Below are positions 11,680 to 48,190 of a DNA stretch of 64,000 nucleotides, piece after piece. The notes under the pieces are model-generated. The model did not search any database. It was not told the DNA's origin and worked only from the letters and a program-made list of their open reading frames with translations. How positions within the stretch are numbered: the stretch's first letter is position 1; each line of letters starts with the position of its first letter. The stretch is taken from the NCBI GenBank assembly GCA_963700635.1, contig CAVOYH010000002.1, positions 1-64,000 on the forward strand, given 5' to 3'. Source of the stretch: an uncultured Bacteroidota bacterium (GTDB lineage Bacteria; Bacteroidota; Ignavibacteria; UBA10030; UBA6906). Position numbers and translations under genes: made by a program.

Positions 11680-12543
11680 TCACCAGAAGTCGAACGCAAA
11701 TCCCGCCGATATTGCCTCCCGCCGCACGTTGTAGTACTCTCCAAAATTATCCCACCCGTTCTGATACACAAGAAACAGACGCGCGCCGCGGCCGGTCCAT
11801 GCCCCGAACTTGATTCCCGCTTCGATGGTGTTGCTTCCGATAATCGTCGGAGTGCCCATAAGGAAAAAGTGCGACGCGATGTACCCGTGCGTTGATCCCG
11901 GTGTGCGGAGCTCCCATCCGGCTATGGCAGTCCATTTCCGGATCTCTCTCGGCTTGACAATCGCGGAGTAGCTGAGCCCGGCATAGAGGCGCACGGGGTA
12001 CGCGCTGAGGTTGGATGAATATGCCCCTATGAGTTCGCCGTAGTTGCGTGAGAAAGGGAAAGGCACTCTGCCGTCACGCCATGATTGTGTGTCGTCATTG
12101 TAATGGCCATCCACCAGATGGGCGCTCAAGTGAAGTATTCTGAACCTGAAGCTCAGAGGCGAGCCGGTGTGATAACTGAAACCAAGGCCAAAAAAGCCGT
12201 CAGCTGCATCGATTTTCAGACGATAGCCCCGGTGGTCGTTGGCGAGAGCGTATGCAAAAAACAGGATGGACGCCCGTATGGTGTCCGTCCCCCTGACATA
12301 TTCGAGCGCATCCAGCGCGTTGCCGATGGCCACCTTCATCCGCGATGTACCGATCTCCTGCTGGATTCCTATCCGGGGCTCTTCGTGATTGGCGAAAAGG
12401 GGTGGAAAAAGTGTGTTAACCGGAAACCAGCTGACGCGGGAAGAGTCCGGCCCGGAAATAGACGCGGCCGGGAAGATGCCGGAGGCAAAGAGAGCGAGCA
12501 AGAAGACGGTGTAGATCGATGTGCGTGTGGATCGTCGTTTCAT
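11680..12543 (-). CDS. DUF1207-like outer-membrane beta-barrel protein
   Basis: Signal peptide, LFPPLFAN..EPR, RFRILHLSAHLVDG, aromatic C-terminus FAFDFW. Confidence 0.65.
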   Translation of the reverse strand: MKRRSTRTSIYTVFLLALFASGIFPAASISGPDSSRVSWFPVNTLFPPLFANHEEPRIGIQQEIGTSRMKVAIGNALDALEYVRGTDTIRASILFFAYALANDHRGYRLKIDAADGFFGLGFSYHTGSPLSFRFRILHLSAHLVDGHYNDDTQSWRDGRVPFPFSRNYGELIGAYSSNLSAYPVRLYAGLSYSAIVKPREIRKWTAIAGWELRTPGSTHGYIASHFFLMGTPTIIGSNTIEAGIKFGAWTGRGARLFLVYQNGWDNFGEYYNVRREAISAGFAFDFW

Positions 12544-12681: not shown

Positions 12682-13542
12682 ATGTCCTGCCATTCTCTTC
12701 CAGTGTTTCTCCTCGCGATAGTTGCTGTTATACGTTCCGGACTGCCGGCGTATGCTCAGGATGACTCGACCGGACTCGACCACACGCGCCTGGCTATCGT
12801 TGGCGCCACGACCGCCGCCGGTGTCACCGCAATCCACTTTTATCAACAAAATGCATGGTGGAAAGACCATCGGACAAGCTTTCACGTCCGGGAAGACCTT
12901 TCGTACGCGGGCAATATTGACAAGGTCGGCCATCTCTACGGCGCATCATTGCTTACATTCGTGTTCAGCAAGTCGCTCCAGTGGGCGCATATGCCGGAAT
13001 CCCGATCGCTCGTCTGGGGAGCGATTGGTTCGACCCTCTTTCAGACATACGTGGAAATAGAGGATGGCTTTTCAGAATACTGGGGATTCGACCGGGTTGA
13101 TTATGCCAGCAATCTCGTGGGGGCATGGTACCCTGTCCTCCAGCACCATGTTCCTGTGTTCCAGAATTTCCAGTTCCGGTTCAGCTATTATCCGAAGAAA
13201 ATGGGCGGGCCCTCTGCAATACCGGGTCAGACCAAAACTTTGCTGGATGACTACGAAGGGCAGACCCTCTGGCTGACGATCACCCCGCGGGGGCTTCTGC
13301 CCGAGAACGCCACATGGTGGCCCGATTTTCTGGGTATCGCTGTCGGCGTTTCGGTCCGGGACAACATCAGTCCGGACCGTTACCTGACCTGGTACATTGC
13401 ACCCGATCTGGATATGCGGTATATCATCCCCCGCGACAGCTGGTTTTTGCGGACGCTGGGCGAAGCCTTGAACTTCATTCATTTTCCGATGCCCGCCGTA
13501 CGTATTGCACCGGGCGTGATATGGTATGGACTGTACTTCTAA
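12682..13542 (+). CDS. DUF2279/YfiM-like protein (paralog of 10587-11630)
   Basis: DKVGHLYG, EIEDGFS..WGFD, DDYEGQTLWL, LNFIHFPMPA. Confidence 0.75.
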   Translation: MSCHSLPVFLLAIVAVIRSGLPAYAQDDSTGLDHTRLAIVGATTAAGVTAIHFYQQNAWWKDHRTSFHVREDLSYAGNIDKVGHLYGASLLTFVFSKSLQWAHMPESRSLVWGAIGSTLFQTYVEIEDGFSEYWGFDRVDYASNLVGAWYPVLQHHVPVFQNFQFRFSYYPKKMGGPSAIPGQTKTLLDDYEGQTLWLTITPRGLLPENATWWPDFLGIAVGVSVRDNISPDRYLTWYIAPDLDMRYIIPRDSWFLRTLGEALNFIHFPMPAVRIAPGVIWYGLYF

Positions 13543-13566: not shown

Positions 13567-15294
13567 ATGACTCCCGTTATGACTCCACATCGACGCGCAC
13601 TAGCACTCTGTTTCCTGGTGATCCTCACGGCTTCTCCGGCCCTTCCTCAGGCTGAGACGGTCCCGGTCTATCATCCCGTCTATTCGTTCCTTAAAAAGAT
13701 GGAGGTGAAAGGAGTGATCGGGCGGTACCACGATGCCGTGTTACCGCTATCGCGCAATGAAGTGGCTGGGCATCTCCGGACCATTCTCGAAAATCAGAAA
13801 AGACTGTCGCCAGCCGAACAGGAATGGATGAGCGACTATCGGTCGGAATTTCAATATGAGTTGACCGGTTCTGTGTCGAATTTTGACGCCCTTGTCAGTG
13901 CTTCGGGCGAAGACACAGACTCCGTGGGCTCCGGGATGCATGCGGGCCGCGAGAGGGTCGCCCTGCTCCATGCCGACAGTCTTGTGACGCTGTTCGTGAA
14001 CGGTCTGGTTGACCTTGACGCCCGGAGGATCTCGGGAGACGGGATGGGGAGCGGCCGCGCGGAATACCTTCAGTTCGGTGCCAGAGCGCGGGGGACTCTG
14101 CTCGGCCATGTGGGATTTTCACTGCAGGTTACGAATGCGCAGTTCTGGGGGAGCCGGGCTTTGCTCGCGCAGGACAGGCACATACGACAGAGTCATGCGC
14201 TCGGTGTTACGAATGCGCAGAATTTTGATTTTGCTGAAGGGTCCGTCCGGTACGATGCGGGTATCATCTCTCTCCAGGTCGGGCGGGAACGTGTGCTCTG
14301 GGGGTCCGGTTACGGGGAGAAGATGACCCTCTCCGACAATCCGCGCGTCTTCGACCACATCCGTACGGACGTGACCTACGGCGCGGTCCGTTACACATTC
14401 CTGCACGCATGGCTGCTCGGCACGGAGCGCGTACTCAGGTTTTCCTTTCCCACAGACACCACTTCACAGTTTGCTGAACCTGTCATAGCAGACAAATATT
14501 TCGCGGCCCATCGTCTGGAGTTGTCATTCCCCGGTGTACTGAGTGTCGGACTTCAGGAAATGGTTGTCTACAGCAATCGCTCGGTAGATCTCGCGTACCT
14601 TTCCCCGCTATCGTTTATCGAGTCGGTACAGCGGTCGCGCGGCGAACGGGATAATGTCTTCTGGGCGTTTGATGTGAAGACCAATTTTCTCCGGGACCTG
14701 CAGTTCACTGCGACCTTGATGTACGATGACATCAACATTCCCGACCTGTTTTCAGAAAAATGGAGTGACCGCTATGCATGGCAGGCCGGCGTCTACTATG
14801 CCGACCCGTTTACGCTCAAAAACACGAGTCTCATCGTTGAGTACACCCGGGTAGAGCCGTATGTCTTCAGCCACGGGCGATCACGGGACAACAGTGTTAC
14901 GAGTCTCGGAGTGCTCCTCGGACCCGCTGTTCCGCCGAACGGCGATTCCTGGTTTGTACGATTGGATTATGCCCCTGAACGGAACCTCAGTTTCAGCGCG
15001 CGTGTTCTATTAGTGCGGCATGGCTCCAACGTTCGTGATTCTACCGGTGCCGTATCGCGGAATGTCGGGGGAGACGTGCTGTTTCCGCACCGCGATGGGA
15101 AAGATGGCGAAACCAAGCTCTTTTTGGATGGAAATGTCACCAACACCCGCCGGATTGAAGTGGCTGCGAGCTGGGAGATCTTCAATCAATGCTGGCTTGA
15201 GGGTTTGTACAGGTTGGACGCAGCAGAGGTTTCCGGCTCAGGACTCAAGAGTACCGACCGTTTTGTAGATTTCCGGCTCCGGTTCGAACTATGA
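13567..15294 (+). CDS. Capsule assembly Wzi-family outer-membrane protein
   Basis: Signal peptide, GRERVLWGSG..LSDN, KYFAAHRLE, YLSP, EYTRVEPYVFSH, LG...PNGD. Confidence 0.7.
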   Translation: MTPVMTPHRRALALCFLVILTASPALPQAETVPVYHPVYSFLKKMEVKGVIGRYHDAVLPLSRNEVAGHLRTILENQKRLSPAEQEWMSDYRSEFQYELTGSVSNFDALVSASGEDTDSVGSGMHAGRERVALLHADSLVTLFVNGLVDLDARRISGDGMGSGRAEYLQFGARARGTLLGHVGFSLQVTNAQFWGSRALLAQDRHIRQSHALGVTNAQNFDFAEGSVRYDAGIISLQVGRERVLWGSGYGEKMTLSDNPRVFDHIRTDVTYGAVRYTFLHAWLLGTERVLRFSFPTDTTSQFAEPVIADKYFAAHRLELSFPGVLSVGLQEMVVYSNRSVDLAYLSPLSFIESVQRSRGERDNVFWAFDVKTNFLRDLQFTATLMYDDINIPDLFSEKWSDRYAWQAGVYYADPFTLKNTSLIVEYTRVEPYVFSHGRSRDNSVTSLGVLLGPAVPPNGDSWFVRLDYAPERNLSFSARVLLVRHGSNVRDSTGAVSRNVGGDVLFPHRDGKDGETKLFLDGNVTNTRRIEVAASWEIFNQCWLEGLYRLDAAEVSGSGLKSTDRFVDFRLRFEL

Positions 15295-38993: not shown

Positions 38994-39245
38994 ATGACAA
39001 CAGTGAAAGTTCTTGGGGCAGGATGCGCAAAATGCAAGGTCCTCCACCAGCGGTTGCTTGACCTGAAGACAGAGCAGGGTCTCGATTTCGAACTCATCAA
39101 AGTCACAGAGATAAATGAGATCATCTCCTACGGCATCATGGCAACACCCGGGTTGATCGTGAACGGTGTTGTCAAGAGCGTGGGGACCGTACCGAAAGAT
39201 GCACAACTCATACAATGGTTGAAGGAAGCAAGCAATGTATCATAA
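38994..39245 (+). CDS. Second small redox-active disulfide protein
   Basis: VKVLGAGCAKC..YGIMATPGLIVNG. Confidence 0.85.
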   Translation: MTTVKVLGAGCAKCKVLHQRLLDLKTEQGLDFELIKVTEINEIISYGIMATPGLIVNGVVKSVGTVPKDAQLIQWLKEASNVS

Positions 39246-39657
39246 TGGAACTCGATTGATCGCTCTCATGACGGCCACTCTCCTGGTCGTTGGCTCAACC
39301 CTATGGTCCCAGTCAAAGCCCGCGAAAGGTCAGGCGGCAGGTGAAGCGACGGCCATACAACCGCTTGTGACATTTGTCGAACTCGGCTCGGTGAAATGCA
39401 TCCCCTGTCGTCAGATGCAGCCGATCATGAAAGCCATCGAGGAGAAATATGGCAAGCAGGTGAACGTCGTATTCTATGACGTGTGGAAGGAAGATCAGCG
39501 TGCGTATGCTGAGAAGTATGGCATCAAGGTTATTCCAACACAGGTGTTCCTTGATAAGGAAGGCAAAGAGTTTTTCCGACATGAAGGGTTCTTTCCTGAA
39601 TCGGAGATCGACAAACTCCTGCAGAAGCGCGGACTGAACGCCCGTAGCGGAGGTTAG
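39235..39657 (+). CDS. Exported thioredoxin-family protein
   Basis: Signal peptide, ELGSVKCIPC, IPTQVFLDKEGKEFFRHEG. Confidence 0.88.
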   Translation: MYHNGTRLIALMTATLLVVGSTLWSQSKPAKGQAAGEATAIQPLVTFVELGSVKCIPCRQMQPIMKAIEEKYGKQVNVVFYDVWKEDQRAYAEKYGIKVIPTQVFLDKEGKEFFRHEGFFPESEIDKLLQKRGLNARSGG

Positions 39658-39660
39658 TCC

Positions 39661-40362
39661 ATGCTTGATCAGATCTTGACGTGGCTGACTATGGGAATGG
39701 GCGACTCATTTGGGATCGCACTGGTTGCCGCCGTCGGATGGGGCGTTATCAGCATTCTTCTCAGCCCCTGTCATCTCTCGAGCATTCCCCTCGTTATTGG
39801 CTACATCAGCAGTCAGGGGCAGGAAGGGTCGAAACGGCCCTATCTGCTTTCCCTGGTGTTCGCGGTAGGGATTCTAATCACGATCGGTGTGATCGGCGCG
39901 GCCACCGCATCGGTGGGCAGGATGATGGGCGACGTCGGCGTGTGGGGCAACGTTATAGTCGCGGGGGTGTTCTTTGTTGTTGGCCTGTACCTCATGGACG
40001 TCATCAGCCTCTCGTGGGGTGGGATCATCCCCCGGACTTCATTCGCTCGAGGGTGGAAAGGGGCGCTTCTGTTGGGCCTCATTTTTGGCATCGGGCTGGG
40101 TCCCTGCACGTTTGCCTATATGGCGCCAGTGCTCGGCGTCGCTTTCAGCATGGCCTCGACAAGTGTGCTCCGGGCCGTTTCGCTTGTTGCTGCCTTCGGG
40201 TTGGGGCACTGTGCCGTGATCGTGGGAGCCGGAGGCGCGGCCGGAACAGTGCAGAAATATCTGAACTGGACGGAACAGTCGAAGGGTGCAACGTATCTGA
40301 AGCGTGGCGCCGGGGTGCTTGTCATCCTGGCAGGCGTGTACTATATCTACACGGCTTTGTGA
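39661..40362 (+). CDS. CcdA/DsbD-type transmembrane electron transporter
   Basis: LSPCHLSSIP and GPCT cysteine pair; multiple TM helices. Confidence 0.88.
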   Translation: MLDQILTWLTMGMGDSFGIALVAAVGWGVISILLSPCHLSSIPLVIGYISSQGQEGSKRPYLLSLVFAVGILITIGVIGAATASVGRMMGDVGVWGNVIVAGVFFVVGLYLMDVISLSWGGIIPRTSFARGWKGALLLGLIFGIGLGPCTFAYMAPVLGVAFSMASTSVLRAVSLVAAFGLGHCAVIVGAGGAAGTVQKYLNWTEQSKGATYLKRGAGVLVILAGVYYIYTAL

Positions 40363-40488: not shown

Positions 40489-40767
40489 ATGAGTGTCCCC
40501 CGAGAACTGATCCCGTGGTATCCTACCATAGAGCAGGACCTTTGCACGAATTGTGGCGTGTGTGTGGATTTCTGCAAACATGGCGTATATGCGTTGGAAG
40601 ATGTCCGGACTGTGGTTTCGGTCCCTTTTAACTGTGTCGTAGGATGCACCGGTTGCGAAGGTCAATGCGCCAGTGGTGCGATCCGACTCCCGGAAATGGA
40701 GCAATTTATCATAACGCCGAGGGAACTTCGCGCGGGGGCCTGCCCCAAGTTTGTGTACCAATGTTGA
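40489..40767 (+). CDS. 4Fe-4S dicluster ferredoxin
   Basis: WYPTI, CTNCGVCVDFC and CVVGCTGCEGQC. Confidence 0.85.
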   Translation: MSVPRELIPWYPTIEQDLCTNCGVCVDFCKHGVYALEDVRTVVSVPFNCVVGCTGCEGQCASGAIRLPEMEQFIITPRELRAGACPKFVYQC

Positions 40768-40834
40768 GGTAAACAAAAAACGCCCCGATACCTGGGGCGT
40801 TCGTGTTCTAATCCCGCCATCATCACCGGGCTCG

Positions 40835-40863
40835 TTGACAATCCGATCTCCCTTCAGTATCAT
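40835..40863 (+). promoter_or_regulatory. sigma70-like promoter
   Basis: TTGACA-17 bp-TATCAT; the -35 box lies in the direct repeat. Confidence 0.65.
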
Positions 40864-41035
40864 GTGTCATATTGTCCGGGGAAGCCCATTCCCTCGCGGA
40901 TCCGGGAATAATAGTTGTCGTAAACCGCAAAGAATAGTTGTCGTCAAACAGTGGATTGGGAATGATGTTGACCTGAAGGCCTCTATACGGGGGAATATAA
41001 GTGGGCCTCGACACAACGCAAAGGAAAACTCACCG

Positions 41036-42085
41036 ATGAGATACATTGCTATCATTTGTCTGGTACTTTTTGCCAGCGCAGCAGCCATGAGTCAGACCAT
41101 CACGAATACTCTCAAGAACTTCTCCAGGAACGGGGACACATACACGTTTGAAATATGGAGTCAGGCCTCACAGAGTGGCATGGGTACAAATCAGGCATTA
41201 TTTCAAGTGTACATCACCTACGGCGCGTTCACCGTTTCAGGATCGACTGTCACGCTGGAGAGCAAGTTCAGTTCATTTGGTCCTGGCAGTCTGGGGTTGT
41301 GGACCTCGGGGGGCATCCAGGGCTTTCAGTTTTCGTTCGGTGGAAGCGGTCTCCCCGGAATTGAAATCTCGTCTGCCGTGGGGGGCGAGAAGGTTCTTAC
41401 GCTCAGATGCAAGATCATCGATACGACCAAGACCTCAGGTCTTTCTTGGGTAACGGCCAACGGATGGTTCTGGTTGACCAACCTCTGGGCGGGCAGCGAC
41501 AACAGCCCGCTGCCGGTTCAGTTGTCGTCGTTCGCGGTTCAGGTGATCAGTGGTGCTGCGCGCTTGACATGGATCACCACGTCTGAAATTGACAACTACG
41601 GGTTTTGCGTAGAGCGTGGTAACTCGCCGGACAATCTGGCAGATGCCGAGGATGGCTTTGTTCCCGGTCATAACACGACGATTGAGCCGCACGAATACTC
41701 GTGGACAGATAAAAATCCCGTATCATACTACAGGCTGCGCCAAATCGATCTAAACGGGAGCGTCCATTACTCGGATATCGTGTCGACAAGTACTGCCGGG
41801 GTGATACCAGTTCTTGCTGCGCGTGAGTTTGTCCTGATCCAGAACTACCCCAACCCCTTTAACCCTTCAACGACGATCCGCTACGGCTTGCCCAACAGGA
41901 CAGCTGTACAGCTGTCAGTCTACAACACAATCGGGCAGCAGGTATCCATTCTGCAGAATGGGGAACAGGAAGCAGGGTATCATGAGGTCAAGTTCGATGC
42001 GCGAAATCTCCCGAGCGGGGTTTATTTCTATCGGATGCAGGCGGGCGCATTCACAGAGACCAAGAAACTTCTCCTGGTCAGATAG
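41036..42085 (+). CDS. Secreted protein with T9SS type A sorting domain
   Basis: Signal peptide MRYIAIICLVLFASAAAMSQ, PLPVQLSSF linker, QNYPNPFNPSTTIRY..LPSGVYFYRMQAG..TKKLLLVR. Confidence 0.9.
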   Translation: MRYIAIICLVLFASAAAMSQTITNTLKNFSRNGDTYTFEIWSQASQSGMGTNQALFQVYITYGAFTVSGSTVTLESKFSSFGPGSLGLWTSGGIQGFQFSFGGSGLPGIEISSAVGGEKVLTLRCKIIDTTKTSGLSWVTANGWFWLTNLWAGSDNSPLPVQLSSFAVQVISGAARLTWITTSEIDNYGFCVERGNSPDNLADAEDGFVPGHNTTIEPHEYSWTDKNPVSYYRLRQIDLNGSVHYSDIVSTSTAGVIPVLAAREFVLIQNYPNPFNPSTTIRYGLPNRTAVQLSVYNTIGQQVSILQNGEQEAGYHEVKFDARNLPSGVYFYRMQAGAFTETKKLLLVR

Positions 42086-42320
42086 TGTATCACGGGCCCG
42101 CCATCATCACCGGGCTCGTTGACTATCCGCTCACCGTTCCGTGCTATGCGATCATAGCGTCCTCGGGGAGAGGCGTGCGGGGGATAGAGCGGAGGCCTCT
42201 TCGTCGAGAGATGGGGAGGCTGCGTCTTTTGGAGGCAAGCTGTCGATCTTCACTGGAACCGCAAGCCTATCTCCAGATGGCGGATTCCTGAAATCGGAAA
42301 TCCAACTCACGCATTGGTAA

Positions 42321-42668
42321 AGACAAAGGGGGCTGGTCACGTTAGCACGAAGACACGTGTCGGGCTCGTGGTCGGCGTGCGCCAGGACCATCGGGATGTG
42401 AGCGGACTCAAGTAGATCTTTGAGCCAATACCATCCGGTGGTGGATTCAACGGCAGTCTGGTGTTCGGCGTCAAGGGTGGTGAAATAATCCGGCACAAGC
42501 GGTAGAGAATTAGGAACACGTCTTTGTTTGACGATTGCGCCTGTTTCATCAACAGTAGTGATGTAACAATTATCGCGGTGCAGATCGATACCTGAATAGA
42601 ACACGACAAGCCTCCTTTCGAATTGTTACTCTAAATTGCAACTTTCGAAAGTTCCTTGTTGGTAATAT
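42321..42668 (-). mobile_element. Internally deleted IS110-family (IS1111-like) element inserted at an attC inverse core
   Basis: Transposase N-terminus 42604-42374 (YSGIDLH..AVESTTGWYWL; RBS AAAGGAGG); only 64 bp upstream and ~53 bp downstream non-coding sequence remain. Confidence 0.8.
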
Positions 42669-42827
42669 CCAGTCGCTCAAGCTGACGTGCGAACCGCAAA
42701 CGCGCCAAAGTCTTGAGAGTTGAGTTACCAACTGAGAACTTACGATGCAACAAGAACTAACGTATCTAAAAAATTAATCCCAACCCGCTGGAGCGTTCGC
42801 ACGCAGCTTAGCTCCAGTCCGTTAGGC
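42669..42827 (+). other. Integron attC site 4 (R'' interrupted by the IS)
   Basis: L'' GCTCAAGC+TGACGTGCGAAC pairs with GTTCGCACGCA+GCTTAGC, leaving an extra C and A on the top strand; R' GTTAGGC 42821-42827. Confidence 0.88.
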
Positions 42828-42857
42828 AACATATTTGATATTTGAGGATATAAAGTC

Positions 42858-44857
42858 ATGAGATCCATTAAAATTACAATATTTATTTTATCTGATATTA
42901 TTTTGCTTTCCTTTCACTCAGATCAAGGCACAAACGAAGAAACGGGCAATGACTTTTCTGGATATAATCCAGATGAGAAGCCTTGGTTCGCGGCAGAATG
43001 GAGATATTTCTCCTGATGGGAAATGGTTTGTTTATACAATTAGAGTTCCTGATTGGGAAACAAATAGAAGATTTGAAGACATTTATATTACTACTTTAAC
43101 TGGCGGTAAGACAAAGCAGATGACCTTCACAAAAGATAAGAATGAAAGATTCCCCAAATGGTGCAAAGATAGTTCAGTCTTTGCATTTTTATCAAATCGT
43201 TCCGAGGATAAGAACCAGATATATTTTATGCGACCAGATGGAGGTGAAGCATGGCAAGTAACTGATGATAAATTTGGCGTAAGCAGTTATGAATTGAGCA
43301 GTAACGGGAAATATCTTGCCTATCTGGGTGGAAAACCTGAAGAAAGACAAATCTGGGTTATGCCAGGTGAAGGAGGGAGAAGCCGAAAAACTAACAAACC
43401 ATAAAATCCCCGATTAGTTCATATTTGTGGAATCCAAACGGTAAGAAGATCTATTTTGTTGCCTCCGCTCATCTATGGGAAATTGACATTGAGACAAAGG
43501 AAGAAATACGTCTTACAGGGGAAAATGAATATTCGGTTTCAGATGTTATAATTTCGGACGACGGAACGAACATCGCATTTATCGGTTCCTCAAAAACTAG
43601 TGAAGTCTACCTTCTTGACTTAAATACTAATACCATTTCACGATTAACAAATAATTCAGTAGATGAATGGTCACTGAGTTTTTCTCCAGACAGCAAATGG
43701 TTTGCTTTTATTTGTGGAGGCGGTGGGGTATTTGGTGATCCGGGGGGGAAAGTCTACATTATGCCCACAGAAGGAGGAGAACTTAAGAAATTGATGAGTA
43801 ACTTTGACTACGCTGACAACTTAGGCTATTTTTGGGGTGACGATAGCAGGTATATCTATTTCACTTCTCAGGTTGGAGTGGATTATCATCATTTCAGTGT
43901 ATCAATCGATAATGACCAAATAAAACTGATTGCAAAATTTGAGGGTGGTATTCATTTTAGAAAGGATAAAGATTCTGGAAAAATGCTTATTTCCTATTCA
44001 GATCCGGAAAATCCAGCAGACTTATTATTACAGCGAACCCGATAAATTTTAACGACAGAGATAAATGGATAAGACTTACAGATGCAAATCCACAGGTAAA
44101 AGGATTCTTGCTAGGCAAATATGAAACCATAAGGTGGAAAAGCACAGACGGTAGAACCATTGAAGGTCTTCTTATAAAACCGGTAAATTATAGTGAAGAT
44201 AGAAAATATCCCCTGATAGTCGATATACATGGAGGACCCGCATCTGCATCCATCAATAATTTTAATTCTTATATTCACATTTTCGCAGCGAACGATTATG
44301 TTGTTTTTCAGCCAAACTATCGTGGTTCTTCAGGATATGGTGAAAAATTCAAAAAAGAGATTGAAGGAGACTGGTTTGGGCAGTCATTCGATGATATTAT
44401 GACAGGCGTAGATTACCTGATTGAAAGGGAGATAGTTCATCCGGACAGTATGGGTATTATGGGCTGGAGTTTCGGAGGCGACTTGTGTAATGAGGCGTTG
44501 GTATCTACCAACCGGTTCAAGGCAATTTCAACAGGTGCCAGCTCGAATGTACCAAAAAGGTATTTGAATAATGCAAAGACACCGACATTAATACACTGTG
44601 GTGAGAATGACAATGAATAATATAAGTCAAAGTGAAGAATTATATATTGCTTACAAAACATAGGAGTGCCTACAGAATTTATTGTTTATCCTAATACAGG
44701 ACATATGATCGGTGTTGTTGAATATGGAATCGGTAATATGAGATACATGATGGTTAAAATGCAATCAGAATTTTACTGGTTTGAGAAATGGATTAGAGGT
44801 AAAGAAAAAGGATGGATTGACTGTAAAGAAATAATAGAATCCTTGGAAGAAAGATAG
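42858..44857 (+). pseudogene. S9 (prolyl oligopeptidase/acylaminoacyl peptidase) family gene, AT-rich cassette with several frameshifts
   Basis: SPDGKW propeller repeats, DIHGGP, NYRGSSGYG, GWSFGG nucleophile, HCGEND, YPNTGH; fragments 42949-43404, 43425-44045, 44108-44620, 44666-44857. Confidence 0.88.
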
Positions 44858-44908
44858 AACCAACAAAAGAATAAGAAATTAATTGAATGGATTATCATTC
44901 AGTAAGAT

Positions 44909-44930
44909 GCCTAACCAGCTTTTAGGCAAC
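44909..44930 (+). other. Collapsed attC remnant closing the S9 cassette
   Basis: TGCCTAAC is complementary to the cassette start GTTAGGCA; TTAGGCAAC follows 6 bp later, identical to 42822-42830. Confidence 0.6.
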
Positions 44931-44978: not shown

Positions 44979-45195
44979 TGTACGTCTTCAGACCATTTTG
45001 GACACTTTGGGCGCAAAGTTAAGAGACAGTTTTTGGCATATCCCGGTTGATGGTAGGTGTGTACGTGTGTAACTGATTGTGCCTTCTCCGCTGTTCAAAC
45101 GTCTGCCGCTTGATCTTTTCCCGCTTCGTTTCGATTTCCTTAGCACGTCCGAAGTAGACATCTGCCGGCGTCAGGTTGTGCAGTGACTTGATTGC
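44979..45195 (-). mobile_element. IS3/IS481-like element remnant (transposase C-terminus and right end)
   Basis: KSLHNLTPADVYFGR..REKIKRQT; end sequence begins TGTACGTCTTCAGACCATTTTGGACAC. Confidence 0.7.
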
Positions 45196-45329
45196 CCCTG
45201 CCTGGAAACGCTCGTCACGAACTTCAGTGCGTCGGATCTTCGGGAGCATCGGGTAGACACCTTTCGACGGGTACCGCTTTCGTCGTGGAAGTACAGGTAG
45301 TAGTAACGGCCACGTTTGGTCAGGAACAT
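45171..45329 (-). pseudogene. N-terminal (arm-binding) remnant of a tyrosine integrase
   Basis: 52-aa ORF MFLTKRGRYYYLYFHDESGTRRKVSTRCSRRSDALKFV, downstream of the tRNA-Ser 3' end and truncated by the IS remnant. Confidence 0.6.
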
Positions 45330-45361
45330 GGTTCACCCTGTGGATTGGGTGAGCAGGGGAG

Positions 45362-45382
45362 TGGTTACTCGACTGGTTACTC
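45362..45382. repeat. Tandem 9-bp direct repeat, candidate integrase arm-type sites
   Basis: TGGTTACTC at 45362-45370 and 45374-45382, between the tRNA 3' end and the integrase start. Confidence 0.55.
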
Positions 45383-45478
45383 TTGCGGGTCACCTTGAAG
45401 CGCACGGACATAAAAAAAGTGCGTGTGGCGAGCACGCACGTTTTGAAAACTGCCTAATACCGATCAATTTCGGTAGGG

Positions 45479-45567
45479 CGGAGGGGGAGAGATTCGAACT
45501 CTCGGTAGAGTGTAAACCCTACGACGGTTTAGCAAACCGTTGGTTTCGGCCACTCACCCACCCCTCC
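45479..45567 (-). tRNA. tRNA-Ser(GCT)
   Basis: GGAGGGG acceptor stem, anticodon loop TT-GCT-AA, long variable arm, GTTCGAATC. Confidence 0.96.
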
Positions 45568-45790
45568 ATCATCAAAAAGGGCACTGAAGTGCGCAGAATA
45601 GATACAGAAGAGCAATCCGCCCTCTTCTGAGTACAACGCGCCGATAAGATAACGAAAAATTCACCCCCCCGCAAGACCACTACTTGATTCTTCACTTCCT
45701 TTTTACCATTTTTTTATGATTATGCCGGATACTATAGTTAACCACCCGGCTGCAAAGCAGGCTTATGATGACGACAGGGGAGTACACACC

Positions 45791-48190
45791 GTGAGGAGCA
45801 AACGACGTTGGCTGTGTTTCAGCATGCTCGTTCTTTTCACCGTGCTGGGTGCCCACGCGCAATCGCAGGATCAACTCCGCCAGCAGGCGGAATCACGCCT
45901 CCGCCAGATGTCCCCCACCGAAATCGAACAAGCCCTCAAACAGTACGGTATGACACTCGATGAGGCCGTCCAGAAAGCACAAACACTGGGCATATCACTC
46001 CAGGACTACCTCGGAAAAGCCAGCAGCACCACGCAGGAACGCACAGAACAACTGCTCGTCGATCCCCGCCTGAACTGGCAGGGAATGGCAACTGCCAAGA
46101 AGACTCTCGACAGCGCCCTTGTTGCCAAGATCCTCCCGGCCATCACCGCGCCTGTGGATGTGCCCGGCTTTAAAGGACGGCTGGGCATCGGAGAAAATAT
46201 CCGACCCTTCGGCTATGACGTGTTCCAGTACCCGGCGACTACGTTTCTCCCGTCTCTGAGCGTGGCAACGCCACCATCGTACGTGCTCGGGGCCGGTGAC
46301 GAACTGGTGGTTTCCGTGTGGGGCGAAACACAACTTTCACACCGGGTCCAGGTGAACAGGGAAGGGAATATCGTCATACCCGACGTGGGACCCGTGGCAG
46401 CCATCGGACAAACGATAGAGAAGTTCCGGGACCGGCTCCAACGCCGGATGTCAGGCGTGTATTCAAGTCTGGCCGGCTCACCCGGCCGGACCCGTTCGTA
46501 TCTGGATGTCTCCCTCGGAAAAATGAAGACCATCCAGGTGTTCGTCCTCGGCGAAGTCCAGAAACCAGGCGGATACCAGCTCTCGTCCATGTCATCCGCC
46601 CTGCACGCTCTCTATCTGGCCGGCGGACCGACCGTGGACGGGACACTCCGGAATGTTCAGGTGCTCAGACGCGGGGAACCCGCCCTGAACGTTGATGTGT
46701 ATTCCTTCGTCCTCCTGGGCGACCGGTCCAGCGATCAACCCCTGCAGGACGGAGACATCGTCCTCGTAAAACCTGCCGGGAAACGGGCCGCCGTGGTCGG
46801 TACCGTGCTGCGCCCGGCAATCTACGAGGTGAAGCCGGGAGAAAATCTCGGCGCACTGATCGGCCTCGCAGGCGGGCCCCGATTTGATGCCCATCTGGAA
46901 CGTGTGCATATCGAACGTATCGTGCCCTTTGACCGACGCAGAGAATATAGCCGGGACATCTTGGATTTTGATGTGCACTTCCGGAACGAAGGCGATCTCC
47001 TGACAGATACCACCGTTGTAGAGGATGGTGATGTCGTCACGTTCCACGAAATTCTCTACCTCCACGAGAATCGCGTCGTGATCATCGGGAATGTCAACAA
47101 GCCGGGTCCGTTTGAATTCCGTGAGGGTATGCGCGTGGCAGATCTTATCATGGCCGCCGATAGCCTCCGGCTCGCGAGCTTTGCCGAGTGGGCAACGCTC
47201 TTTCGCACATTGCCAAACCTGCGCAGGGAAGTGATCGGGTTTAGTCCGCGTATGGCTCTGCAGGGAGACCCCCACGAGAATCTGTTGCTGCGGAATGAAG
47301 ATAGTGTTGTGGTGTATTCCTTCAACCAGTTCTATCCCGGTGAAGAAGTGTCTGTGTTCGGTGCAGTGAGGAAGCCGGGGAATTACCCGCGCCACGATAG
47401 CATGACCGTCTCTGATCTGGTCGTGATGGCAGGTGGGCTTGTGGATGGCGCAACCACAACGGGATGGGAGTTATCGCGCCTGGACACTTCAGACATCAAA
47501 ACGTATACGCAAATGATCAAGGTGGAAGGCGATCAGGACTACTGGCGGCACGACGGGGGGAAGGGTGTGCACCTCCAGGATTATGATGTGCTGACGGTTC
47601 CGTATGATCCGCGGTTTTCGACTCCGAAATTTATCCGTGTCAGCGGCTATGTGATGTATCCCGGTACCTACACAATACAATATGAGGGTGAGCGTATCGC
47701 GGATATTTTCAGGCGCGCCGGAGGGCTCCGTCCGGGGGCCTATCTGGAAGGATCACGGCTGGTCCGCAAGTTCAACAACGCCGGACTCGTGCCCCTGGAT
47801 TTCCGGAAAGCTATGGAGCGCGAGAATTCGCGGGACAATGTGGTGGTCTATGACGGTGACTCCATCAATGTGGCATTTACCGAAGACATGATCTATGTGA
47901 GCGGGGAAGTCTATGTGCCTTCGCCCGTGCTGTATGAAGAAGGCGCCGGGCTGAGCTACTATATAAGGCAGGCAGGCGGATACAAGGAAGAGGCGGAGAA
48001 AGGGAACACCGTGGTGTTCCTCCCCGGCGGGAAAAAATGGGATAGCGGAGAGATCCTTCCGGGAAGCACGATCCTCGTGCCAAGGGAGCTCGACAAACCG
48101 GACAATACGCTCCCAGTTCTCCGTGACCTGGCGACCATTCTTGCCAGTCTGGCGGCAATCACCGTCGCCCTCGTTCAGGTCACCAAGTAA
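45791..48190 (+). CDS. SLBB-repeat polysaccharide export protein (Wza/KpsD-like)
   Basis: PFGYDVF, YVLGAGDEL..VWG, repeated GEVQKPG/GNVNKPG/GAVRKPG..AGG SLBB units. Confidence 0.9.
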   Translation: MRSKRRWLCFSMLVLFTVLGAHAQSQDQLRQQAESRLRQMSPTEIEQALKQYGMTLDEAVQKAQTLGISLQDYLGKASSTTQERTEQLLVDPRLNWQGMATAKKTLDSALVAKILPAITAPVDVPGFKGRLGIGENIRPFGYDVFQYPATTFLPSLSVATPPSYVLGAGDELVVSVWGETQLSHRVQVNREGNIVIPDVGPVAAIGQTIEKFRDRLQRRMSGVYSSLAGSPGRTRSYLDVSLGKMKTIQVFVLGEVQKPGGYQLSSMSSALHALYLAGGPTVDGTLRNVQVLRRGEPALNVDVYSFVLLGDRSSDQPLQDGDIVLVKPAGKRAAVVGTVLRPAIYEVKPGENLGALIGLAGGPRFDAHLERVHIERIVPFDRRREYSRDILDFDVHFRNEGDLLTDTTVVEDGDVVTFHEILYLHENRVVIIGNVNKPGPFEFREGMRVADLIMAADSLRLASFAEWATLFRTLPNLRREVIGFSPRMALQGDPHENLLLRNEDSVVVYSFNQFYPGEEVSVFGAVRKPGNYPRHDSMTVSDLVVMAGGLVDGATTTGWELSRLDTSDIKTYTQMIKVEGDQDYWRHDGGKGVHLQDYDVLTVPYDPRFSTPKFIRVSGYVMYPGTYTIQYEGERIADIFRRAGGLRPGAYLEGSRLVRKFNNAGLVPLDFRKAMERENSRDNVVVYDGDSINVAFTEDMIYVSGEVYVPSPVLYEEGAGLSYYIRQAGGYKEEAEKGNTVVFLPGGKKWDSGEILPGSTILVPRELDKPDNTLPVLRDLATILASLAAITVALVQVTK

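Follow-up and report, generated by a model that had tools for sequence, protein, structure and literature searches.

The window analysed here comprises 64,000 nucleotides (nt) of an uncultured Bacteroidota bacterium (assembly GCA_963700635.1, contig CAVOYH010000002.1, positions 1 to 64,000). Its minus strand carries, at 42374-42668, the 5' stub of an IS1111-type element of the IS110 family, which abuts an integron attC site (42669-42827, plus strand) within the R'' box. The stub is the front end of an attC-homing IS1111-type element and persists as an immobile relic of 297 bp. Very probably a complete element inserted into the attC site and a subsequent deletion removed most of it, leaving the relic on a crippled attC.

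A truncated IS1111-type element in an attC site

The minus-strand open reading frame (ORF) 42152-42604 begins MFYSGIDLH...VESTTGWYW, an IS110-type N-terminus that a first-pass annotation of the sequence had already recognised. Residues 4-78 match positions 2-80 of the 343 in the NCBIfam profile NF033542 ("IS110 family RNA-guided transposase", E 4.8e-6), and residues 5-76 match Pfam PF01548 with an E-value of 1e-3 and 19.4 bits, under the 29-bit cut-off. A database search with 78 stub residues returned 20 full-length proteins of 251-377 amino acids carrying both PF01548 and PF02371. The best match to these residues, P0002 (335 amino acids), is 86% identical, and its residues 1-79 align to 42604-42368 at 82% identity (tblastn, E 9e-43). 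The N-terminal fragment is thus real, and it ends at codon 79. A separate tblastn match of P0002 residues 315-334 to 42224-42162 (E 0.082) is R/P-rich and was taken as chance.

The stub consists of a left terminus, ATATTACCAACAAGGAAC (42651-42668), a leader of 64 nt, a GTG start codon (42602-42604) and 79 codons of the DEDD domain, with no more of the DEDD signature than the first D (GIDLH) and the E (VEST). The public sequencing run X1 reads T at 42604, which gives an ATG start as in the relatives. At the DNA level the stub is 85%, 81% and 78% identical to the related loci L019, L020 and L046, with matches ending at 42374-42381; homology to the element breaks off at about 42368-42374. A profile of 12 full-length relatives has a sole match in the window genome (4.2 Mb), at 42670-42374, covering profile positions 1-314 (nhmmer, E 1.1e-58). 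The profile of the last 330 nt, which includes the guide region and right end, finds nothing in that genome up to an E-value of 10. Neither a further piece of the element nor a seekRNA region was found anywhere in the genome with the whole-element profile and with those of the non-coding region (NCR) and right end, and the C-terminal Transposase_20 domain with its catalytic serine motif is absent from both window and genome (tblastn, profile).

The adjoining attC site was recognised by alignment, profile and fold, and lacks the left six bases of R''. It comprises the spacer CAGTC (42670-42674), the L'' arm (42675-42694), the L' arm (42795-42812) and R' GTTAGGC (42821-42827). The segment 42666-42831 matches 24 places in a related genome, G058 (71-79% identity for full-length matches), which are distributed over two contigs, on a single strand in each, and are spaced about 0.3-1.4 kb apart. 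A profile built on 18 such copies has a single match in the window genome, at 42666-42826 (E 2e-31), so that the attC proposed beside the stub by the first-pass annotation is borne out. The bottom strand folds into a long stem with two bulged bases, alike in the window copy and in an intact G058 copy. The hallmarks of attC are present, namely R' GTTAGGC, arms of 18-20 nt and the two bulges; attC units of this lineage measure about 165 nt.

All 18 intact G058 copies read (N)CTAAC-CAGTC-GCTC(A)A...GTCC-GTTAG(N)(N), with the spacer GAGTC in one of them, whereas the window copy reads GGTAATATC-CAGTC-GCTCAAG...GTCC-GTTAGGC. ATATC replaces CTAAC before the spacer, R'' is reduced to its last base, and the interruption lies exactly where the first-pass annotation had put it. 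The element therefore lies at R'' (the inverse core) and antisense to the cassettes, as had been proposed. Its left terminus maps to 42668 from the junctions of the relatives, again where it had been placed before. The next two bases, CC at 42669-42670 (GG in element orientation), are the last base of R'' and the first of the spacer; they form a core dinucleotide common to target and element.

In the lineage this attC family occurs in same-strand arrays, as in G058, and the window genome holds one attC and one remnant. Integrons are on record in Ignavibacteriae (PMC9024848). Proteins above the TIGR02249 cut-off for IntI occur in G058, G034 and G052, the intI gene lies within a few kb of element-bearing attCs in G034 and G119, and IntI is present in 74 of 201 genomes of the order. 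No IntI was found in the window genome, where the best match reaches 83 bits against a TIGR02249 cut-off of 265. The IntI genes of three genomes of the g48 genus (G058:C3:8176-9117, G103 and G144) each contain one in-frame TAA stop.

Related elements and their guide-like segments

Related elements were found at 34 loci, in records titled Ignavibacteriota, Ignavibacteriae, Bacteroidota/Bacteroidetes and, once, as a Chitinophagaceae metagenome-assembled genome (MAG). Twenty-eight of them (L019-L046), from 12 MAG assemblies, were examined; because few genomes supply many of these, the locus counts are not independent. Full-length relatives measure 1365-1428 bp and share with the stub both the attC position, CCTAA^C, and the orientation, which is antisense to the cassettes. 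A left end could be located at all 28 loci, 26 of which have a GAGnnnCTGG-type flank, and a right end at 25, with TTAG next to it in 23. Joining the flanks rebuilds an attC with R'' xxCCTAAC, L'' CTCAAGCTGAC, L' GCAGCTTAG and R' GTTAGGC. Recovering full-length copies with their flanks, as the first annotation had suggested, thus yielded relatives that sit in attC R''.

Four copies in G052 share 1443-1456 bp. Their left junction, ...GAGCGACTGG|ATATTATCAAAAAGGAA, can be set beside that of the window, ...GAGCGACTGG|ATATTACCAACAAGGAA, and their right junction reads ...CTTGACTCTGTCCTTTTTAAAATGG|TTAGG. Among the relatives GG precedes the left end and also closes the right end (...CTGG|ATATTA and ...TGG|TTAGG); since it stands at both junctions, GG is taken as a core of 2 nt. 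The target then reads ...CTGG-TTAGG..., or CCTAA^CC^AG in cassette orientation. A subfamily in G034, 58-72% identical to P0002 (tblastn), comprises four copies and four mini-elements. All eight lie within 17 kb of intI, antisense to the array, at CGCCTAA^CA^AGCGG of a different attC type. The fixed insertion position and single orientation are found there too, as well as at the window's own junction. Judged by its flanks, the family is attC-specific. Together with the guide-like segments described below, this agrees with the earlier suggestion of an attC-targeting, putatively RNA-guided family in a lineage of the Fibrobacteres-Chlorobi-Bacteroidetes (FCB) group. H14, considered for comparison with the published IS1111-attC sequences, lies in surroundings that are not an integron.

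P0002-type proteins occur in 15 of the 201 genomes of the order (E 1e-40 or better). A hand cross-tabulation gives IntI in 8 of the 15 element-bearing genomes versus 69 of 186 without the element, a weak enrichment among genomes that are related to each other. The closest plasmid-borne IS110-family protein is 35.7% identical, among 2184 matching records, and no annotated IS1111-attC member was among the plasmid search matches.

Internal-deletion derivatives also occur. Three belong to the closest subfamily of the window copy. L046 (2435-3176, about 740 bp) joins element positions 1-310 to 976-1353, with a breakpoint within about 15 nt of that of the window stub. L048 and L049 (2477-2686) join positions 1-33 to 901 onward and would measure roughly 510 bp, their contigs stopping before the right end. 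In G034 the locus L013 (G034:C2) contains four repeat units of about 550 bp (1981-2518, 11850-12407, 12945-13473 and 14293-14852), each a mini-element plus attC. The copy examined, about 394 bp long, has kept both ends, the guide-RNA region and some 60 nt from the 3' end of the coding sequence. All four minis occupy the R'' of their attCs within 17 kb of intI, beside the four full copies. The derivatives with a right end in view (L046 and the G034 minis) all keep the right end and the NCR.

Two further observations concern individual loci. The rebuilt attC of L032 and L040 has an extra insert of roughly 96 nt in L'', between CTC and AAGCTGAC; the insert carries a terminal hairpin (CCCGACAAAGAACGTCGGG...) and is possibly a further small element associated with attC sites. 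L034 (the OY969585 locus) has the right end AAAGTGG and the flanks GTTAG|...|TTCGG, which mismatch its own guide-like AAAATGG and GCTGG, and may be a hybrid or decaying copy.

The relatives show IS1111 features. Their leader is about 64-81 nt long, whereas the 3' NCR spans 282-315 nt in 11 of 13 elements measured; the other two, with NCRs of 119 and 375 nt, have atypical ORF lengths. They carry Transposase_20, in which RLVPAADNSN of P0002 corresponds by eye to the GL-P----S(t)G motif (PMC11187229). Their subterminal repeats, AAAAAGGA(A), have extensions of 7 and 3 nt if GG is assigned to the left end (by eye); on that assignment the left end, GGATATT+ATCAAAAAGGAA, agrees with the reverse complement of the right end, ATT+TTAAAAAGGAC, at about 9-10 of 11 positions. 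The arrangement would then fit that published for IS1111 elements, whose subterminal repeats have 7-nt and 3-nt extensions and which add no bases on insertion (PMC11187229). When the ends are joined, TTGACT would come to lie 17 nt upstream of GATATT (counted by eye), a spacing that fits the junction promoter published for the family (PMC11187229).

Alignment of the NCRs shows four conserved blocks, in the order right target, left target, left-end guide, right-end guide. The first, CCTAAC, overlaps the stop codon and is antisense to GTTAGG, the flank on the right of the target; it was found in 11 of 13 elements. The second, nnCTGG-AT-TGGG, is the sense of the left target flank, the core and the first two left-end bases. 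The third, GTAATAT-CTGG, is the antisense of the left end and is looser, with about 5-6 nt shared. The fourth, AAAnTGG-TT-TGG, is the sense of the right end, the core and the first two bases of the right flank. In block 4, 11 of 13 elements repeat the final 7 nt of their right end, with five different heptamers among them (AAAATGG, AAAGTGG, AAACTGG, AAAGAGG and AAAGGTG), and in block 2, 12 of 13 repeat the final 5 nt of their left flank, with four pentamers (ACTGG, GCTGG, CCTGG and GCTTG). L019 and L034 depart from this at the right end, and L034 does so at the left flank as well. Such covariation between guide and target and between guide and end is as expected for a seekRNA or bridge RNA, suggesting that these elements may be RNA-guided. 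The predicted guide RNA would run from near the stop codon of the transposase gene and cover CCTAAC...TGGTTTGG. The 3' location of the segments agrees with the RNA predicted in the right end of IS1111 elements (PMC11208160).

The breakpoint and competing explanations

The DNA directly left of the breakpoint, 42232-42373, is neither element nor attC and holds a small palindrome. When 42086-42373 was searched against 67 genomes of the same family, the 42232-42373 part gave two weak short matches only (E 5.5e-4 and 8e-3). No match to 42321-42373 was found among 60 relatives. The query as a whole matched 12 of the 67 genomes, in most of which it was 42153-42231 that matched, on both strands. This part contains a GC-rich, hairpin-forming host intergenic repeat of about 65-75 nt (42157-42231) that resembles repetitive extragenic palindromes (REP-like); in same-family genomes it often lies downstream of genes with a type IX secretion system (T9SS) sorting domain. 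In view of this repeat and of another at 42097-42169, native-type DNA reaches at least 42231. The latter is one copy of a 70-nt direct repeat (40813-40882 and 42097-42169, 81% identical, 97% in the first 33 nt) that brackets a gene with a T9SS C-terminal sorting domain (40751-42085).

Contigs from public runs were compared with 41900-43100; the runs contained at most 0.22 of the sampled words, and no RNA run contained the stretch. A 422-nt contig of run X1 covers 42187-42476 at about 96% identity with 11 differences and bridges the breakpoint, which is therefore real, and a 208-nt contig of run X2 covers 42607-42815 with two differences and one gap and bridges the junction of left end and attC. 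In metagenome contigs, exact matches were found neither for a 28-mer from the DNA to the left of the breakpoint nor for a 30-mer within the attC.

In the order of events that we infer, an RNA-guided, IS1111-type element of the IS110 family would have entered R'' of the attC between CCTAA and C, sharing the 2-nt core with its target and carrying its transposase gene on the strand opposite to the cassettes. A later deletion would have taken all that lay beyond codon 79: the remainder of the DEDD domain, the C-terminal domain with its serine, about 300 nt of 3' NCR with the predicted guide RNA and the right end, as well as the left portion of R'' and anything further upstream in the array. The break would have been joined to host-like intergenic DNA at about 42373/42374, and the immobile stub would have been left in a decayed cassette fragment with two attCs, in a genome in which no IntI was found.

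Several points weigh against this reconstruction. Pfam support for the stub alone is weak (19.4 versus 29 bits), and a PF01548 family search of the window genome missed even the stub. That genome is 97% complete with 6.7% contamination, which limits what the absence of IntI and of further element copies can mean. The deletion, with 42232-42373 as its partner sequence, is something that we infer, and TGGTAA|C at 42315-42320 together with a 7-nt repeat could in principle mark an old junction. Eleven of the 28 loci come from one chromosome and many from few genomes. As to the predicted RNA, the guide segments were read from alignments, the RNAalifold consensus is weak (-5.65 kcal/mol, 8 of 22 pairs with double changes) and a full-length relative has no credible Rfam family match. 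One element type is moreover found at flanks that differ at position -5 (e.g. L028), so that this position is not strictly read.

The first-pass annotation had seen in 42321-42668 a two-ended mini-element lying cleanly in R'', whose removal would restore TGGTAAC, with the TAA serving as stop of an upstream cassette gene. TGGTAA does stand directly before 42321, an ORF ends there, and the family does contain true internal-deletion derivatives (L046, L048, L049 and the four G034 minis). The right end is the difficulty. Local alignment of 42290-42373 with the right ends and whole elements of L019, L046, L033, L041 and L023 scored no better than 200-300 shuffles, and the 12-element profile goes no further than 42374. 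Derivatives with a visible right end retain it with the NCR, while the window copy has neither. Nor does the excision rebuild a proper R'': TGGTAAC has G where all 18 intact G058 sites have C, it would give TTAC where 23 of 25 right flanks have TTAG, and TTACCA lacks a preceding GG core. The repeat TTGGTAA is indeed present at both 42314-42320 and 42659-42665, but its second copy belongs to the conserved interior of the left end (most relatives have TTACCAA or TTATCAA there) and is not a target duplication. The ORF, 59 codons on the plus strand (42141-42320), does end in TAA; it matches nothing in Pfam or NCBIfam up to an E-value of 1, overlaps the REP-like repeat and is probably not a gene. 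The terminus proposed at about 42321 is thus lost while that at 42668 holds, and we regard a mini-element of this kind as very unlikely.

It is similarly improbable that another mobile element split the original at about 42374 and carried the remainder elsewhere. The palindrome in 42232-42373 and other mobile-element debris near a tRNA-Ser gene would suit such an event, but the whole-element and NCR/right-end profiles brought up nothing more of the element across the 4.2 Mb of the genome, and repeats of host type start at 42231. We give hardly any credence to an assembly chimera, either at the junction near 42374 or involving the low-GC block downstream. Such an artefact could account for the jump in GC from 55% to 37% at about 42850, the contamination of the assembly, and the several frameshifts in an S9 peptidase, at one of which (42894) contigs of runs X1 and X3 lack a base. 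However, contigs of X1 and X2 bridge the two critical junctions, and the GC jump coincides with the attC crossover point and ends at the second attC remnant, as for a foreign cassette. Finally, the idea that 42669-42830 is the element's own 5' bridge RNA, which its place upstream of the transposase start and its good RNA fold (z -2.9) might suggest, is ruled out by the element-free occurrence of the 165-nt unit in the G058 arrays, the divergence of the relatives' flanks right after GG|ATATTA and the 3' position of the long NCR in full-length relatives.

Cassette context and relation to known elements

Downstream of the attC lies a low-GC cassette (42822-44921, plus strand; 37% GC versus about 55% around it). 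It encodes an S9 prolyl-oligopeptidase-type protein with a PD40/DPPIV beta-propeller, broken into five ORF pieces in three frames (42858-44857), four of which match Pfam PD40, DPPIV_N or Peptidase_S9. The base missing from X1 and X3 at 42894 would fuse the first two pieces, and this frameshift may accordingly be strain-specific or an assembly error. A contig of X1 tracks the attC to 42825 and is unlike the window beyond it, and one of X3 matches from 42822 after 84 unlike letters; contigs of X3 and X4 carry the cassette start in other contexts. These breaks at 42822/42825 fall at the G|TT crossover of R' (42821-42827), as expected for exchangeable cassettes.

At the other end of the cassette, 44909-44930 (plus strand) reads GCCTAAC-CAGCT-TTTAGGC-AAC, with R'' fused almost directly to R'. 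We read it as a degenerate second attC without its interior. The genome of 4.2 Mb contains CCTAACCAG twice and the 9-mer TTAGGCAAC six times; two copies of the latter, at 42822, where the cassette begins, and at 44922, each directly follow an R' crossover point. The short minus-strand ORFs at 45019-45435, which have no Pfam or NCBIfam match, resemble the N-terminal part of a tyrosine integrase and the tail end of a transposase of rve type. A tRNA-Ser(GCT) gene (45476-45568, minus strand) is the sole Rfam match in the region. Synteny with five genomes of the same genus is limited to 39000-40362 and 45478-47500 and is too weak to date events. With its split peptidase, second attC remnant and flanking debris, the locus is a decayed cassette fragment in a variable region.

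A group of IS1111-attC elements (ISPa21, ISPst6, ISKpn4 and ISPa25) was reportedly described by Tetu and Holmes in 2008 and by Post and Hall in 2009. IS1111 members that target attC with a seekRNA have been published (Siddiquee et al. 2024, PMC11187229), and such elements are on record as inserting close to the 5' end of attC and in the opposite direction to the cassettes (PMC3001079). The present family resembles that group in its DEDD transposase, long 3' NCR and apparent subterminal inverted repeats (PMC11187229), in its insertion at the 5'/R'' end of attC in a single orientation, opposite to that of the cassettes (PMC3001079), and in RNA segments matching both target strands, for which the guide-like segments seen here would be the counterpart (PMC11187229). 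It differs in its hosts, which are Ignavibacteriota/Bacteroidota MAGs with chromosomal integrons rather than Proteobacteria and class 1 integrons, in a transposase at most 35.7% identical to proteins of plasmid records, in attCs of about 165 nt and, for the window copy, in being a stub.

With the bridge RNA systems of IS621 and the IS110 group (Durrant et al. 2024, PMC11208160) the elements share the recombinase family; P0002 matches ISCro4 (1.8e-8) and IS621 (1.8e-7) in the PDB (phmmer). They also appear to share separate target and donor guides with left and right halves around a 2-nt core (PMC11208160). Unlike in IS621 (PMC11208160), the RNA region lies 3' rather than 5', the order of guides differs, there is no Rfam match and the RNA is a predicted one. 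Group IIC-attC introns likewise home to the 5' part of attC in antisense (PMC3001079); these are ribozyme/reverse-transcriptase retroelements, whereas Pfam and Rfam searches found none such here. No paper linking attC-homing IS1111-type elements with integrons of the FCB lineage turned up in the literature searched. The kind of element is thus already known, while the lineage and its host group appear to be new.

Tentatively, these elements may form an independent deep IS1111-type lineage that came to target attC separately from the proteobacterial IS1111-attC group, in which the guides would have been retuned to different attC families (CAGnnnCTC versus AAGCGGCTGG) and minis consisting of RNA region plus ends would have spread through sedentary chromosomal integrons, where they freeze cassettes; we see this as possible rather than probable. 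If true, these separate-lineage elements would be a natural record of guide-target co-evolution inside integrons.

The window copy itself is an inert relic, which marks a decayed cassette array and explains the crippled attC. Beyond it, attC-homing, IS1111-type elements, predicted to be RNA-guided, are common in chromosomal integrons of an FCB lineage. The family offers natural covariation of putative guides with targets and with ends over two attC types, and it holds non-autonomous derivatives with only the ends and the RNA region. It may provide test material for the programmability of seekRNAs and for the way in which such elements immobilise cassettes.

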